Counted from the stretch's first letter, positions 18,001-24,000 are shown. The stretch is DNA of 64,000 nt from Myxococcales bacterium (GCA_047601445.1 JASGJH010000001.1:8864001-8928000), one strand, 5' to 3'. Numbers are program-made.

Positions 18001-21000
18001 GCTCGGCGCAGGATCTCGTGCGCATCGAACAGGGAGCCATCGCCCAGCACCAGGCCGATGCTTGGGCCCTTCATGAGCTCGCTCCCGCTGGTGGGCATGG
18101 GCGCGAGCAGAGCGCGGCGGATGCGTTCACCCACCGCGAGCGCGTCGGCACTTGCATCGGCGTCCTCCAGCAGGAGCGCGAACTCGTCACTGCCAACTCG
18201 CGCGACGGTGTCGCCCGGGCGCACCGAGCTCTCGAGTCGCGTCGCCACCGACAGCAGCAGCTGGTCGCCGATGCTGCGGCCCAGGCGCTGATTGATGGCC
18301 GTGAAGTCGGCCAAATCCACGAACATCACCGCGAAGCGACGGCTCGGGTTGCGGCCTGCGCGGGCCACCGCGTGGATCACACGGTCGAGGAATAGTCTGG
18401 CGTTGGGGAGGCCGGTCAGGGCGTCGCGGAAAGCCGGCTGCAGGCCACTCTCCACGGGTCCTGGCTGGCTGCTCAGATCGGTCCACCACCCCAGCACCCG
18501 GCCGGCCGGCGAGCTATCGACCGTGTCCCGCCGCGCGTGCACCGACACCCAGCGAAACGAGCCGTCCTCGTGCCTCAAGCGATGCACGCATTCCACCCGC
18601 TCCGTGCGCCCCGCCAAATGGGTATCGAGCAGCTCTCTCAGCGCCCCCAAGTCCTCCTGGTGAACGCGTGCGAACCACGCCTCGGAGGGGCACGGGTTGG
18701 GCGCGCCAGCCAGCAACGGCTGGCTGGCGGGGGTGTAGCGCAGGCGGTCGTTCTCGAGCTCCCACACCCAGGGTCCACTGCCCTCGCGCTGCAGGGGATG
18801 CCGCAGATGCTCTTCGAGGGCGAGCTCCGCCCGGGCCGTGCGGCGGGCGAACAGGCTGGCCAGGATGCCCAGTAGGATTAGCGCCAGCCCGCCACAAGCG
18901 ACCCAGATCACTCCGCCCCCATCGCCCATTCCCACCGATCATACGCCCCCTGGCGCCGGAGGGTAACCGACTTAGATTTGGGAACGGTATGCGGCGTAGC
19001 GAAAAAGCGGAGCGAATCCGCCTCCAGCTCGACGAGCTGTTCCCCGAGGTGCCGATCCCCCTCGATCATCGCGATCCCTTCACGCTGCTCGTGGCGGTGG
19101 TGCTCTCGGCCCAGACCACCGACGCCCGTGTGAACTTGGTTACTCCTGCGCTGTTTGCCCGTGCTCCCACGCCCGAGGCCATGAGCCATCTGAGCGTCGC
19201 GCAGATCCTGGCGTTCATCCGCACCTGCGGGCTGGCCCCATCCAAGGCCAAGAACCTGTTGGCGCTCTCGCAACTCTTGCTGGAGCGTCACGCGGGAGAG
19301 GTGCCGAGGACCTTCGAGGAGCTCGAGGCGTTGCCCGGGGTCGGACACAAGACGGCGAGCGTGGTGATGTCCCAGGCCTTCGGCGTGCCTGCCTTCCCCA
19401 TCGACACGCACATCCATCGGCTCGCCGAGCGCTGGGGGCTCTCGGACGGCAGCAACGTCGTGAAGACGGAGCGGGATCTCAAGGCGCTCTACGCCGCGGA
19501 GCATTGGAACAAGCTGCACCTGCAGTTCATCTACTTCGGGCGCAGCTATTGCCCCGCCCTGCGCCACGACGCGGTCCGCTGTCCTGTCTGCAGCTGGGCC
19601 GCCCCCTCGCGTCGGCGCGGCGCAGCGAGCAAGCGGCGAGTTGCCGACCGCGCGTGAGCCGCGCTACATGGTGCGAAGCCAGCGCGAAGCGCGCGTTGGA
19701 ATTGGAGAGCGACACATGGCAACGCTACGTGAAATGGTGGCCGACCCCGGCAAGAGGCAGCAGGTCGTGGACGACGCCATCAAGGTCATCGACGCGGAGG
19801 TCTCCGACAAGGGAGGGCTCGGGGGCATGGCCATCAAGGCGGCCTACTCGATGGCGAAGGGAGTCGCGCCCGGCATCATCCAGAAGGTGCTGAACAACAT
19901 GCTCGACGACCTGCTCGGCGCGCTGCAGCCCTACTTCGACGAGTCCAAGGCCAAGAAAGCCGACTTCAAGAATCACGTGGTGGCCAAGGGATCCGACGTC
20001 GCCAACTCGCTCTTGGCGGTCACCGACGCCCGCGCCTCCAGGGCCTCTGGCGGGGCGCTCAAGAAGGGCTATGAGAAGTTGCGCCCGACGGCCCAGAAGC
20101 ACGTGGAGCAGGCCTTGCCGCGGCTGGCCGATCTCGTCACCAAGCACGCCAACTGAGGCGCTGCCACGAGCCTGCCGGAGTGCACTTCGTGAGCGAAGCG
20201 AAACTCGCGCAGGGACCCGGCGCTGTGAGCGAAAGCGAACCTCGCGGTGGGGTGGGACCCGGCGCAGCTTCGCTGCGACGGGCGGGGAGGTCGCGTGACC
20301 TCCCCGTGCAACAGCTGCGACGGGCGGGGAGGTCGCGTGACCTCCCCGTGCAACAGCTGCGACGGCGGGGAGGTCGCGTGACCTCCCCGTGACTAAGTCC
20401 AGTCGAGTACGTAGGTGAGCACGTTGTTGTGCATCCACGGGCGCTCTTCGAGGCGCACGGACGGTGCCTTGCCACCCGCGCTCTCCACCACCTCGAGTGA
20501 CCAGCCCATGATGTTGTGCCCCACGCAGGCCGACATATCCGGGAAGCCCGCCAGGTGAATCCGCGCGCCCTTGCGCTCCGGGTTCGCCTCATCTGCGGGC
20601 AACTCGGTCACGGTGATCTCGCCGAAGTTGAAGAGCTCGCGCCAGCGACTGCCCATGTTGTGCAGGGACTCGAGGGGCTTGCCCGGGAGGAACACGCGCT
20701 CGGGTTGCTCGTTGATCAGCGCGCGCGCCGAGGCGCGTCCCATGTTCTGCGCAGCCGCCTCGCTGCCGTCGAACACATAGCGATGCACGATTTGCAGGAG
20801 GCTCTCGAAGACCTGCAGCGAGTACCAGGTAGTCGGAGACACCCGTTTGCGCATCAGGTCCTGTTCCCAGGGGCCGAACTCCGGCAATTGATGGGTGCGT
20901 CGGTGGGCTCGCAATAGCCGCACCACGCCCACCAGATTCGTCCCCCGGACCAGCCGCTCCTTCATCGTGCGCTCATATCATGCGAAAGGCAGCCTGCTCA

Positions 21001-24000
21001 ACTCGACGACCCCGCGTGCGCGGGCAGGTTCGGGCCGAGCGAGAAGCGCCGCTCCTCGAGGCCGTAGGCCTTGGGGTTCAGCTCCAGCACCGTGTGCAGC
21101 GGGATGCTCACGTGCGGAATCTCCTCGGGTTCTCGGCCCAGAAGATAGCCGTAGATGGCTCGTAGCACCGCTTGATGGCTGATCACCAGCACTGGGCGTT
21201 GCTGGCGCTCCAGCTCGAGCACGACCGGTTCCACCCGTTGGATCACGTCCATGTAGCTCTCGCCGCGTGGGTAGCGATAGCCGAGCTTGTCGCGCGCGCG
21301 CGCTTTCCAGTCGTCGGGGAAGTGCTCCTTGATCTCCTGGTACGTCATGCCGTCGCAGACGCCCGCTTCGATTTCGTTGAGCGCTCGCCACTGCAAGGTC
21401 TGGCGGCCCAGGATCTCGGCGGTCTCGTGGGTTCGCACCAGCGTGCTCGTCCACACCTCCACGCGGCCGTGGGGCGCGATGCGCTCGTCGTAGAAGAGCT
21501 TGAGGTTCTTGGCGTACTCGCGGCCGAGCTCGGAAAGCTGCGTGTTGCCACCGATGCGTTCCACCACGTTGAACTCGGCTTGACCGTGACGGGTGAGCCA
21601 GATGGGGCGCGGCACGTTGTGCAGGTTCACCAGGAACGACACCAGGCGCGAGGGCAGATAGCCCGTGATCTGGTTGACGATCACCTGTCGGCCCACGTCG
21701 ATCAGTTTGATGTAGCTGCCTTCGCTCTCGTCCACCGGCTGGTAGACCTTGGCGTAGTGCTCGATGCGGGCGCGGAAGTCGGCCACCGCCAGATCCGGAT
21801 CGATGCCGGCGTAGTCGGGCGAGTCGAGCTTGGTGGCGCGCACGTTGGCTTCCACGGTGGCTTCGTCGCACAACGACTCCACGAAGATGACGTTCATGCC
21901 TTCGCGCTCGCAGCGCTCCTGGATCAGGCGTCGGCGCTCGCGCGTGCTGTTGGTGGCGTCGTAGATGGCGACCTCGCCGCCGCGCTGGAACCAGCTCACC
22001 ATGTCGTCGAGGGCCATCAGCGCCACGCGGGTACGCTCGCGCACGCCCTCGGGGTTGAGCGGATCGAAGAAGTCGTGGCTGCGCTGGCTGCCCAGGTGCT
22101 CGCGCCGATAGTTGCCCACGTTGAAGAGGCGGGTCGGGTGCCCGAGCCAGTTGAGGTAGCGCGTGATCTTGCGCGCCACGTAGGTCTTGCCGCGAGCCGG
22201 CAGGCCCACCATCACGATGGCGTGGGTGGGGTTGTCGCCGTGAAGGACTGCCATGCTCGAAGGATAGGAGGGAGAAACGCCGCGCGCACCTTGGGGGCGA
22301 GCGGGCGAGGGGGGCGTCGGAGTGAATCGGGTAGGGCGGTGTAACCATCGGCGTGACGCGGAACGGCTGACCTCGCACGATCCACGTCAGACGGCCCCTT
22401 CAATCAAAGCCCTGCATGAGGCCGCTCGAGCGTCGAGAGGTGTTCGATCACGAGCTCGCCCATGCTGCGGCAGCGGCGAAAGCTCGCTAGCCCATAGTGC
22501 TCGGCCATCTCTTCGGCGAGCTGGTTCACATGCTCGGCCGGCGCAATGTCGTCCTGGGCCATCACCGACAGCAGATCCTCGAGCCGCCCGCCCGAGGACT
22601 TCACGCGGCGGCGGATCAAGGAGCGCTCCTCCAGCTGATACTGCCGCACCGTCTCGCGCGACATGCACTTGATGCCGAGGAAGATGATGGGATTGTTCTG
22701 CTTGAAGTACTGGGGCAAGTACACCTGGCGCTTGCCCTCGTAGCTCTGCTGGTCGAAGTCGATGGCCCGCAGGCGATAGGTGGTCTCCTCGAAGTCGGGC
22801 GTGATGTCGATCACGAAGTTGGCCGAGTGCATGTCGCCGAGCAGGCGCAAGAAACAGCGCTCGTTGAACTTCACGAACTCCTTCGCCAGGCGCACTTCGT
22901 CGAGGTGTCGGTCGCTCAAGTAGCTGCGGATGAACATGTTGCCCGGGATGCCCGAGATGTGCTCCTCCACCAGCGTGTCACGGTCGTATAGGAACGTGAT
23001 CACGTTCGGCGACAACATGTGCTCGAGTTCCAAACCATAGAGGCGCGAGGCATCGGCGCGCTTGACGTAAAAGTAGTCGAAGTTGTCGTTGAGCGTGTTG
23101 ACGATGCGGACCCGAAAGGGCTGCGTGTTGCCGTAGGTGCACAGGTCGACTCGATCGACCACCAGGTGCTCGAAAGCGTCGGTCTCGCCGCCCGTCTTCA
23201 TCTGGGCGTAGATCTGCATCAAGCCGTCGCGGACCTCGCGTTGATCTTGTGCCGAGTACAGCACGCTGACCCACAGCGTGTCGCGGCCCGCCTTGTCGTA
23301 GAGGGGGATGGCCTGCTCGTAGCGCAAGAGGTCGTCGTAGCGCACCGGGAGGCGCACGCTGCGGTCGTACTGGGTCAGGTACGCGGCGAAGGCGGGCCGG
23401 GCGGCATAGATGCGTTTCTTACGCGAAATCAGGTGGGGCATGGCCAGCGGCTATGGTCTGATGACACGCGCGAGCGGGCAAGCCCCTCGCGACGGCCTGG
23501 GGCGAGCGGGCAAGCCCCTCGCGCCGCCGCGTGCCGCCCCGGGGGGACCCGCTACCAGCTCGTGTAGGGCAACTTGTGCCCCACCGTCTCGGCGGCCTGC
23601 TGTCCCTCGATGAGCTGCGCGATGGGGTCCCATTCGCCGCGCACCAGGGCGTCGCGCGCGCTCTGCTTGATGCTGCACGGGTAGCTCTTGCCGCCCGCAC
23701 GCACCTCGAGCTTCTCGAGATCCACGCTGATCTCGAGCTTGGGATCGCGCTCGATGGCGGCAGCCAACTCGGCGATCTCCGCGCGCTTGAGGCTCACGCA
23801 GGGGATGCCCAGCGTGGTGCTGTTGCCGAAGAAGATCTCGGCGAAGCTCTCCGCGACTACGGCGCGGAAGCCGGCCTTGTGGATCGACTGGGGCGCGTGC
23901 TCGCGCGAGCTGCCGCAGCCGAAGTTGCTGCCACTCAGGAGCACCTTGGCGCCCACGAAGCGGGCGTCGTTGAGCGCGTGCTGCTTGGGGGTTCCGTCAC

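Follow-up and report, generated by a model that had tools for sequence, protein, structure and literature searches.

A resident myxobacterial gene for a full-length, minimal-core PFK-2/FBPase-2 and its plausible link to class-1 fructose-1,6-bisphosphatase

The 64,000-nucleotide stretch of a Myxococcales genome analysed here (the window) carries a resident bacterial gene for a 6-phosphofructo-2-kinase/fructose-2,6-bisphosphatase (PFK-2/FBPase-2), a bifunctional enzyme, which is full-length and, judging by its sequence, has both catalytic centres intact. We give a probability of roughly 60% to the joint reading that this is an active enzyme reduced to a minimal core, that the class-1 fructose-1,6-bisphosphatase (FBPase) of the genome is the likeliest receiver of fructose 2,6-bisphosphate (Fru-2,6-P2), and that the gene is old, mostly vertically inherited, and related to the eukaryotic genes by a deep transfer. 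The gene and its parts are located as follows:

20998..22254, minus strand: PFK-2/FBPase-2 gene, intact ORF of 418 aa with an ATG start (ORF list and translation)
21613..22227, minus strand: 6PF2K kinase domain, residues 10-214 (Pfam PF01591, E 5.6e-77)
22183..22206, minus strand: Walker A / P-loop GLPARGKT, residues 17-24, taken from the DNA
21055..21603, minus strand: His_Phos_1 (FBPase-2) phosphatase domain, residues 218-400 (Pfam PF00300, E 1.2e-38)
21583..21591, minus strand: RHG motif with the phospho-acceptor His223, residues 222-224, taken from the DNA

The two domains follow each other in one chain, 6PF2K at the N-terminus and His_Phos_1 at the C-terminus, as in PFKFB enzymes (Pfam). 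An earlier note on this DNA had described a full-length bifunctional enzyme with these motifs and domain matches, and our results agree. The P-loop and the RHG motif fall in the same places when taken from the DNA, and the Pfam matches are essentially as given, with the same profile spans (258.5 bits for a cut-off of 27 and profile 13-222 of 223 for PF01591; 133.2 bits for a cut-off of 21.7 and profile 1-187 of 194 for PF00300). Moreover, 12 distinct full-length PFKFB chains of solved structure match query residues 8-405 with E 1e-118 to 1e-120; for human PFKFB3, PFKFB2 and the rat testis enzyme (PFKFB4), the match is at E 1e-120 and spans residues 8-401. The two alignments that we viewed, to both PFKFB3 constructs, show no large gaps. 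Isolated-domain structures of rat FBPase-2 (1c7z and 1fbt) match the phosphatase domain at E 2e-57.

We compared residue conservation between 65 bacterial rows and 122 eukaryote-type rows of an alignment. The P-loop fits the nucleotide-binding pattern GxxxxGK[TS]; its residues G17-K23 are found in 100% of the former and 84-99% of the latter, and T24 in 94% and 54%, respectively. In the kinase domain, G17 L18 P19 A20 R21 G22 K23, R50 R51, D99 A100 T101 N102, R108, E126, K142, R163, Y167 and Y171 are identical in 65/65 bacterial rows; among these, R50, R51, D99, T101, N102, R108, E126, R163, Y167 and Y171 are present in at least 92% of the eukaryote-type rows. The phosphatase residues shared by all 65 bacterial rows are R222 H223 G224, N229, R274, E294, Y305, R319, K323, Y334, H360 and R365. 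We take E294 to be the catalytic-centre glutamate and H360 the second histidine of the phosphatase centre, and most of the listed residues of both domains presumably have the roles described for the rat and human enzymes. In total, 54 positions are conserved in both groups (at least 95% of the bacterial and at least 90% of the eukaryote-type rows), and no position conserved in at least 85% of the 122 eukaryote-type rows has a differing consensus in the 65 bacterial rows. Both active sites therefore look selected. The RHG histidine is described as the phospho-acceptor of the phosphatase centre in PMC9721465.

This conservation also bears on whether both domains matter in vivo. Only one of them could be catalytically relevant, the other serving as a structural or regulatory module as in several fungal and protist isoforms. 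Eukaryotic monofunctional isoforms do exist, e.g. the fungal pfk2-b, in which the RHG histidine is replaced (PMC9721465), but such isoforms show substituted catalytic residues, while the P-loop, the kinase arginines and tyrosines, R-H-G, E294 and H360 are identical in 65/65 bacterial rows. We thus consider a single relevant domain improbable.

The gene is present in a single copy in the genome of this soil-type myxobacterium, which is assembled as one contig of 9.50 Mb. Its reading frame is translated without interruption. Of the 22 nearest relatives in the database, at 79-94% identity, 21 share its length of 418 aa, which supports the ATG start. Bacterial genes flank it on both sides. Its GC content is 0.659 and its GC3 0.895, with GC3 values of 0.85-0.93 in the neighbouring genes. 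Eukaryotic contamination, mis-assembly or a recent non-functional capture might be suggested by the high identities with enzymes of plants and Amoebozoa, but these explanations are ruled out by the residency evidence, i.e. the single contig with bacterial flanking genes, the GC3 similar to that of the neighbours, the uninterrupted ORF, the presence of the gene in 8/9 congeners and 82/401 genomes of the phylum, and a family-coherent phylogeny. The neighbouring features are the following:

20393..20965, minus strand: 190-aa ORF, beginning 32 nt downstream of the PFK-2/FBPase-2 gene on the same strand
22404..23441, minus strand: 345-aa ORF, ending 149 nt upstream of the PFK-2/FBPase-2 gene on the same strand
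Farther upstream than the 345-aa ORF: leuD and leuC

Neither the 190-aa nor the 345-aa ORF has a match in Pfam or NCBIfam. From a comparison of 80 related loci, the 190-aa ORF adjoins the PFK-2/FBPase-2 gene in only two, both from close kin, and is therefore not a conserved partner; the 345-aa ORF does so in one. No conserved neighbour or operon tying the gene to sugar metabolism was found in these 80 loci.

Then, we investigated the distribution of the gene. The earlier note described it as common in the lineage and rare in other bacteria, which is borne out by its presence in 82 of the 401 genomes of our phylum sample (Myxococcota) and in 1 of the 301 genomes of a second phylum, this lone carrier being probably mis-binned. 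The presence in congeners also stands, but the count rises from 6/9 to 8/9, with one match truncated by the end of its contig; the one congener lacking a match has a genome of 72% completeness. Among 41 relatives, the window's genome included, 19 exceed the Pfam cut-off. Carriers are spread over several classes of the phylum, and none of the 214 genomes from the remaining orders of the class to which the window belongs has the gene. A screen of 185,579 species genomes with two conserved peptide patterns gave about 700 stretches; 599 of them were inspected, and tblastn confirmed 519. The counts of the earlier note (193/592 Polyangiales, 297/1654 Myxococcota and 1024/189,784 bacterial species genomes) are of a similar order. 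All eukaryotic supergroups with labels are represented among the named hits.

Host families are mirrored in the gene tree. With nine host-family labels, nine changes are needed for a minimum of eight, compared with a mean of 22.1 changes for shuffled labels (0/200 shuffles as low as nine). Identity between bacterial families has a median of 55% and a minimum of 49%. Keeping 12 bacterial rows in one group improved the log-likelihood by 1.77 units over the unconstrained tree (AU p 0.536), so that the test does not reject a single bacterial clade. For a divergent bacterial member, the closest relatives all belong to the 394-439-aa bacterial type. The gene would thus be old and mostly vertically inherited within families of Myxococcota.

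Four trees do not settle where on the backbone the bacterial group joins. This group lies outside the well-supported clades of Amoebozoa (98/93), Opisthokonta plus Pygsuia (99/96) and green plants (95/96). We suggest a deep transfer between the myxobacterial gene and the eukaryotic stem, in either direction, the one from eukaryote to myxobacterium being slightly more parsimonious. The description of the enzyme as a "eukaryotic invention" in the earlier note presupposes a direction and is not upheld by these trees, nor by the median identities (48% between bacterial and eukaryotic sequences vs. 43% between eukaryotic supergroups). The opposite scenario is that the fused enzyme arose or was present in the ancestor of Myxococcota and was then passed to the eukaryotic stem, bacteria being on the donor side. 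Fru-2,6-P2 signalling would then be no invention of eukaryotes, and the modern bacterial copies would be slow-evolving, tail-less representatives of the ancestral form, regulating gluconeogenesis via class-1 FBPase without a eukaryote-type PFK-1. Such a scenario is consistent with a bacterial group nested in no well-supported eukaryotic clade and compatible with a single clade in the AU test, with the central position and deep inter-family divergence of its sequences, and with carriers found in several classes along a gene tree that matches families. However, eukaryotic hits occur in every labelled supergroup, while the bacterial ones come essentially from one phylum (82/401 vs. 1/301) and are patchy within it (0/214 in the other orders of the class). 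A free-standing precursor of the fusion was not identified in bacteria, and in an unrooted tree, such as ours, a slow rate of evolution can be enough to make bacterial sequences look central. We therefore regard a bacterial donor, and with it a non-eukaryotic origin of the signal, as rather doubtful.

Finally, we looked for the possible targets of Fru-2,6-P2. The "usual targets" announced in the earlier note, two phosphofructokinases (PFKs) and a class-1 FBPase, are indeed present, but the PFKs are single-domain bacterial enzymes and not of the eukaryotic PFK-1 type. These two matches, of 347 and 400 aa, are the only ones in the genome, and both are single-domain by the NCBIfam models PRK03202 and PFK_mixed. 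The eukaryotic PFK-1 chains that they match have 743-989 aa, so that the bacterial PFKs are about half the size of the ~780-residue type. In eukaryotic PFK-1, the Fru-2,6-P2 site is located in the duplicated second half. No duplicated PFK-1 of ~780 aa with this effector site is present among the PFK matches of the genome, and neither PFK shows any resemblance to a dedicated Fru-2,6-P2 site. Against the PPi-PFK models, both PFKs fall well short of the cut-offs. Both have a GG[DN]GS motif, whose glycine we take to be the position that is Asp in PPi enzymes, and one has PKTIDND. An effect of Fru-2,6-P2 on these two PFKs is possible, with no support from homology.

The single class-1 FBPase of the genome matches NCBIfam NF006778 with 495 bits (cut-off 368) and is closest to E. 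coli FBPase structures (E 1.7e-111). A GlpX-type FBPase was found neither in this genome nor in the 41 relatives (0/41). PFK occurs in all 41 genomes, carriers and non-carriers alike, and class-1 FBPase in 18/19 carriers and 18/22 non-carriers, one carrier (G040, 93% complete) having no match. Since these frequencies are equal, co-occurrence supports no target. According to PMC6400660, Fru-2,6-P2 inhibits the mammalian FBPase by competing at the active site; the reference list of this paper includes a structural study of the synergism of AMP and Fru-2,6-P2 on mammalian and bacterial FBPase. By homology, class-1 FBPase is the only plausible Fru-2,6-P2 receiver among the supposed targets.

The gene, its domains, the conserved catalytic residues, its residency and its distribution are thus documented, and from them we infer that the protein would have both activities and that Fru-2,6-P2 and a target for it would exist in the cell. 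The N-terminal kinase domain, with its P-loop, would use ATP to phosphorylate fructose 6-phosphate at C2, and the C-terminal histidine-phosphatase domain would hydrolyse Fru-2,6-P2 via a phospho-His223 intermediate. With these two reactions, the cell could set a level of Fru-2,6-P2 that tracks hexose-phosphate supply. The most plausible receiver would be the sole fructose-1,6-bisphosphatase detected, of class 1, so that at high sugar gluconeogenesis would be turned off and futile cycling avoided. Alternatively, the enzyme could be active with Fru-2,6-P2 or another sugar bisphosphate acting on a receiver other than FBPase or PFK, or its main role could be to dephosphorylate other phospho-sugars. 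Candidate receivers would be a transcription factor, an enzyme of glycogen or trehalose metabolism, or pyruvate kinase, which receives Fru-2,6-P2 in trypanosomatids. The presence of only two single-domain PFKs, with no eukaryote-type PFK-1 found and no plant-type PPi-PFK recognised at the model cut-offs, the equal frequency of the supposed targets in carriers and non-carriers and the uninformative gene neighbourhood are in line with this explanation. On the other hand, the strongly conserved eukaryotic positions of both domains are kept in all bacterial copies, which argues for the same substrates, and binding of Fru-2,6-P2 at the active site belongs to class-1 FBPase chemistry. We consider another receiver or substrate a serious possibility, though unlikely, and retain class-1 FBPase as the likeliest receiver. 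No report of Fru-2,6-P2 measured in any bacterium was found in the literature searched. With an intact bacterial gene, present in about one fifth of the sampled genomes of the phylum, the Fru-2,6-P2 signal may extend beyond eukaryotes.

A myxobacterial PFK-2/FBPase-2 is already known from NCBI annotation, where homologues in Sorangium cellulosum, Sandaracinus amylolyticus, Minicystis rosea, Byssovorax and many MAGs, including Polyangiaceae MAGs, are named 6-phosphofructo-2-kinase/fructose-2,6-bisphosphatase. They have the same core of 394-439 aa with 55-62% identity, belong to other families of the phylum and show no synteny with the window's gene. No characterised myxobacterial homologue was found in the literature searched; PMC9721465, citing Rider et al. 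2004, gives the homologue of Desulfovibrio desulfuricans as the lone bacterial exception to a eukaryote-only distribution.

Among labelled eukaryotes, the top single identity (58%) is with the dictyostelid Acytostelium subglobosum (P0242), whose enzyme has a 125-aa N-terminal extension and joins the other Amoebozoa (98/93), not the bacteria; this identity is due to short branches. The plant F2KP enzymes (Arabidopsis lyrata P0210, spinach P0186) have the highest identity among the large named groups, 53-56% across 94% of the query. In the tree they share the unresolved side with the bacterial enzymes, but the bacterial clade stands outside the well-supported green-plant clade (95/96), and F2KP, unlike the bacterial protein, is extended at the N-terminus by ~330-350 aa that include a CBM20 starch-binding module. 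Identity to duck PFKFB3 is ~47% over aligned columns. The vertebrate PFKFB1-4 (human PFKFB3 6ibz/2axn, rat testis 1bif) have in common with the bacterial protein the two-domain chain, the P-loop and the RHG/Glu/His phosphatase centre. The N- and C-terminal tails of PFKFB bear hormone-driven phosphorylation sites. In comparison, only 16 residues precede the P-loop in the bacterial protein and ~12 follow the conserved core, so that it is a minimal core without these regulatory tails. In the absence of such a phosphorylation switch, control would be exerted by substrates, small-molecule effectors or expression.

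The gene under study encodes P0001, a 6-phosphofructo-2-kinase/fructose-2,6-bisphosphatase (PFK-2/FBPase-2) of the bifunctional type, and both of its domains are recovered almost over the whole length of their profiles.

Features of the PFK-2/FBPase-2 gene (window positions for the ORF, P0001 residues for the domains)
20998-22254, minus strand: PFK-2/FBPase-2 ORF, 418 codons uninterrupted, beginning at the first start codon of the open frame
Residues 10-214: 6PF2K domain, Pfam E 5.6e-77, profile positions 13-222 of 223
Residues 218-400: His_Phos_1 domain, Pfam E 1.2e-38, profile positions 1-187 of 194

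The ATG start is supported by the closest database relatives (79-94% identical), 21 of 22 of which are also 418 aa long. Among the sequences of solved structures, human PFKFB3, PFKFB2 (human, bovine-type) and the rat testis enzyme match residues 8-405 of P0001 with E-values between 1e-118 and 1e-120, and the isolated FBPase-2 domain of rat matches with 2e-57. NCBIfam has no dedicated PFK-2/FBPase-2 model; there, the phosphatase half matches CobC- and GpmB-type families, below cut-off only. The earlier note had reported a eukaryote-type enzyme with a P-loop GLPARGKT at residues 17-24 and an RHG motif at residues 222-224. Both motifs lie at these positions and, with the intact ORF and the two Pfam domains, they bear out that observation. 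Judged from its sequence, P0001 is near certain to be a genuine, intact and selected myxobacterial PFK-2/FBPase-2.

We then compared 65 bacterial sequences (16 database proteins and 49 ORFs from genome loci) with 122 eukaryote-type representatives in a single alignment. Fifty-four positions are conserved in the bacterial set as well as in the eukaryote-type set, and no position conserved at 85% or more among the 122 eukaryote-type rows shows another consensus in the 65 bacterial ones. All 65 bacterial rows are identical in the kinase half at G17 L18 P19 A20 R21 G22 K23, R50 R51, D99 A100 T101 N102, R108, E126, K142, R163, Y167 and Y171, and in the phosphatase half at R222 H223 G224, N229, R274, E294, Y305, R319, K323, Y334, H360 and R365. 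The P-loop Lys and Thr, the arginines and tyrosines binding fructose-6-P, and the Glu and second His of the phosphatase presumably have the same roles as in the rat and human enzymes. In the sections of a 2022 paper dealing with this enzyme, the RHG histidine is described as the phospho-acceptor, and its loss as the mark of monofunctional fungal isoforms (PMC9721465). The conservation observed is the pattern that purifying selection on both activities would give, and it speaks against a copy that is decaying or has kept a single function.

The PFK-2/FBPase-2 gene is resident in the bacterial genome. It is the single 6PF2K match in a genome assembled as one contig of 9,502,601 bases, and its surroundings are ordinary for a bacterium: leuC, leuD, a LysR regulator, a GGDEF-EAL protein, an HhH-GPD glycosylase and a sugar epimerase. 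Its GC content is 0.659 and its GC3 0.895, with GC3 values of 0.76-0.93 in eleven neighbouring genes, and no break was seen in the composition profile along the window. To look for an operon, all ORFs within 4 kb of the gene were clustered across 80 related loci. The ORF located 32 nt downstream (190 aa) adjoins the gene in two of these loci and the one located 149 nt upstream (345 aa) in one, in close kin only; neither was assigned to a family by Pfam or NCBIfam. As the neighbours found in the window recur in just 1-2 of the 80 loci, we rejected a conserved operon context. The sole recurrent neighbour family is that of Ser/Thr kinases (24/80 loci; 12/64 outside Sorangium). We judged this recurrence to be no more than chance would give, since myxobacterial genomes hold very many such kinases. 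The stretch between window positions 20200 and 22700 showed no consensus resembling a promoter or a terminator.

Other observations concern the position and the vicinity of the gene. The 80 loci include 16 complete Sorangium chromosome records (L019-L033 and L036); in these, the locus that holds the gene spans roughly 43-58 kb, counted from where the record begins. A position close to the record origin is conserved in these chromosomes. The window also contains, at 30232-31596 on the plus strand, a gene for a 454-aa XPB/ERCC3-type helicase (XPB damage-recognition domain PF18458, ResIII and ERCC3_RAD25 C-terminal domain), another family known mainly from eukaryotes and archaea. At 14445-15353 on the minus strand, a 302-aa ORF with DUF2452 (E 2e-39) lies antisense to, and overlaps, the beginning of a Zn_peptidase_2 gene located at 15033-15731.

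We investigated the distribution of the gene in samples at increasing phylogenetic distance.

Genomes carrying a PFK-2/FBPase-2 gene (carriers)
Congeners: 8 of 9 (one match truncated by a contig end; completeness of the ninth genome 72%)
Sampled relatives, including the window's genome: 19 of 41 (above the Pfam cut-off)
Even sample of the phylum Myxococcota: 82 of 401 (74 of 339 high-quality genomes; 53 of 255 genera)
Window's own order within its class: 5 of 36, with the window's genome as one further carrier
Remaining orders of that class: 0 of 214
Second phylum: 1 of 301

The phylum sample is strongly structured by family, with carriers in 10/29 genomes of the coded family f17 and in none of f35 (0/34), f8 (0/23), f41 (0/12) and f42 (0/11). 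The gene is nearly universal in f38 (28/29), a family of another class, whereas no genome sampled from the remaining orders of the window's class carries it; such a distribution needs many losses or transfers between classes within the phylum. Of the 82 carriers in the phylum sample, 64 fall outside the window's order and are labelled "same phylum"; none of their families is represented in the class sample. The family had previously been presented as common in Polyangiales. The counts given for it are of the same order of magnitude as ours, but the sampled share outside the window's order is higher than they implied.

The one match in the second phylum is a 2.8-kb contig (G428:C168; loci L059/L123) of a MAG titled Burkholderiales, through which this phylum was reached. 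Because this contig is alone in its phylum, the other 300 sampled genomes being devoid of the family, and because its protein clusters at 99 with that of a Myxococcales MAG, a binning error is the most likely origin of this copy. Two loci titled 'uncultured Enterobacteriaceae' (L062 and L074) also carry myxobacterial-type copies. A scan of 185,579 species genomes with a pattern of two conserved peptides returned an estimated 700 stretches or so; 519 of the 599 examined were confirmed, and the best 80 matches were all myxobacterial-type sequences.

To follow inheritance, host families were coded on a tree of 38 bacterial rows. The nine family labels require nine changes on this tree, for a minimum of eight and a mean of 22.1 after shuffling, and none of 200 shuffles was as low. 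Family f38 (14 rows, support 95) and the window's own family (6 rows, support 100) each form one clade. Descent is therefore mostly vertical at the family level. At moderate support (85-91), some families of the window's order are intermixed with families from other classes, and old transfers inside the phylum may have taken place. Sequence comparison places P0001 in a large, mostly vertically inherited bacterial branch of the family.

We then investigated the relation of this branch to eukaryotes. An exhaustive search of representatives returned 12,127 proteins at E <=1e-3, 3,861 at <=1e-10 and 1,283 at <=1e-30. Of the 30 representatives whose entries were consulted, 16 had an organism name, so that many tree rows are eukaryote-type by their extensions only. 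The named ones belong to Amoebozoa (Acytostelium, Dermamoeba, Flabellula), Opisthokonta (duck PFKFB3, a choanoflagellate, Syssomonas, Sodiomyces), Breviatea (Pygsuia), Rhizaria (Reticulomyxa) and Archaeplastida (Rhodelphis, Chlorokybus, Volvox), plus one Myxococcota cluster; plants and Mortierella were among the PFK-2/FBPase-2 matches of a separate search. One MMETSP protist transcript (P0122, 1069 aa) encodes two complete PFK-2/FBPase-2 units in tandem, the second far more divergent (33% identity to P0001 vs. 44-45% for the first).

Four trees were built: FastTree with 138 rows, IQ-TREE LG+C20 PMSF in a quick version (94 rows) and in a careful version with bootstraps (44 rows), and a quick IQ-TREE LG+G4 with 42 rows (38 bacterial and 4 eukaryotic). 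With FastTree, the 16 bacterial rows all fall in one group (93), within a 46-row group shared with plants, Chlorokybus and Rhodelphis (90). The backbone of the tree collapses once the site-heterogeneous model is used. In the careful 44-row tree, support is good for Amoebozoa (98/93), Opisthokonta with Pygsuia (99/96) and green plants (95/96); the bacteria lie outside all three, in a comb together with Archaeplastida, Rhodelphis, an MMETSP group and rows that have no label. Bacteria are monophyletic in 14% of its bootstrap trees. When its 12 bacterial rows were constrained together, the tree was 1.77 log-likelihood units better than the free one (AU p 0.536), and a single bacterial group is therefore not rejected. 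For P0306, a divergent bacterial member, the 119 best matches are all of the bacterial type (394-439 aa).

Median identity is 55.4% between bacterial families (range 49-62%), 48.2% between bacteria and labelled eukaryotes (37-58%) and 43.3% between eukaryotic supergroups (34-52%). Bacterial members thus sit centrally in the family, on short branches. An identity of 58% to Acytostelium reflects two such branches and not kinship. The gene was not captured recently from plants, animals, fungi or dictyostelids, and the exchange with eukaryotes is deep. A transfer from eukaryotes to bacteria is slightly more parsimonious, because all labelled eukaryotic supergroups have the family vs. essentially one patchy bacterial phylum; the reverse direction seems unlikely.

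Next, we searched for the possible receivers of Fru-2,6-P2. The earlier note had stated that its usual targets are present, and the genome does encode two PFKs and one class-1 FBPase. The first PFK (P0404, 347 aa) fits the ATP-PFK subfamily model and carries GGNGS and ASTIDND; relative to the canonical ATP-PFK motifs, GGDGS and PGTIDND, it has an Asn in place of a metal-binding Asp and a Ser at the Gly/Lys discriminator. Its gene lies outside the window (G000:C1:5917880-5918710, minus strand; locus L093, 1366-2409, minus strand), and its best-matching PDB stretches come from the PFK-1 of mammalian muscle and liver, in the C-terminal (regulatory) half. The second (P0405, 400 aa) fits the "PFK_mixed" group and carries GGDGS and PKTIDND. 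Both are single-domain proteins, whereas the eukaryotic PFK-1 chains that they match have 743-989 residues. Eukaryotic PFK-1 has its Fru-2,6-P2 site in the second, duplicated half. Homology gives no support for activation of the two PFKs found here.

FBPase is a better candidate. P0406, the class-1 enzyme, passes the equivalog model (495 bits against a cut-off of 368), and its closest structures are those of E. coli FBPase (E 1.7e-111). Fru-2,6-P2 is an inhibitor of the E. coli enzyme. GlpX was found neither in the window's genome nor in any of the 41 relatives, and class-1 is therefore the only FBPase type detected in the group. Passages of one paper describe competitive inhibition of mammalian class-1 FBPase by Fru-2,6-P2 at the active site and cite a structural study of AMP/Fru-2,6-P2 synergism in mammalian and bacterial FBPase (PMC6400660). 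Class-1 FBPase is the most plausible receiver, and we infer that Fru-2,6-P2 signalling would operate in the cell with this enzyme as target. The phylogenetic profile was rejected as evidence for a target, since class-1 FBPase (18/19 carriers, 18/22 non-carriers), GlpX and PFK (41/41 genomes) fail to discriminate carriers from non-carriers. No class-1 FBPase match was found in one carrier (G040, 93% complete), and no PFK subtype is common to all carriers, some having the short type only and one the long type only. In another carrier (G011:C671:8374-8995), class-1 FBPase was matched in two pieces separated by an in-frame TAG, a pseudogene or an assembly error.

The gene itself is no new kind of thing, as databases already name it. 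NCBI annotates the homologues of Sorangium, Sandaracinus amylolyticus, Minicystis, Byssovorax and many MAGs as "6-phosphofructo-2-kinase/fructose-2,6-bisphosphatase", and JGI as "broad specificity phosphatase PhoE/predicted kinase". As far as our searches reach, these automatically named proteins are neither characterised nor discussed: beyond a remark on Desulfovibrio, the literature search returned nothing on a myxobacterial or other bacterial PFK-2, and paywalled work may describe bacterial homologues. In its relevant passages, the 2022 paper treats control of glycolysis by Fru-2,6-P2 as eukaryote-specific and one bacterial gene as an oddity, citing Rider et al. 2004 (PMC9721465). A 2026 preprint, where it touches on the subject, likewise calls control of PFK by Fru-2,6-P2 apparently eukaryote-specific, citing Michels & Rigden 2006 (PMC12873801). 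What we describe is an intact enzyme with both active sites under selection, inherited with the host family and present in about one fifth of the sampled genomes of one phylum. The carriers include cultivable Sorangium and Sandaracinus, so that two questions become directly testable, whether bacteria synthesise Fru-2,6-P2 at all and which receiver it would act on in a cell without the duplicated eukaryotic PFK-1. The answer bears on how the circuit first worked, inhibition of FBPase being perhaps its original function, and on whether myxobacteria and early eukaryotes exchanged regulators of central metabolism.

In comparison with the eukaryotic enzymes, P0001 is a bare core, with 16 residues ahead of the P-loop and about a dozen past the last conserved block. 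Among the 138 full-length rows, plant enzymes are extended at the N-terminus by about 330-350 residues, which in some of them include a CBM20 domain, and most other eukaryote-type representatives have 20-600 extra residues at one or other end. In vertebrate isoenzymes, the phosphorylation sites that switch the enzyme sit in the terminal tails. The bacterial enzyme, devoid of such tails, must therefore be controlled in some other way.
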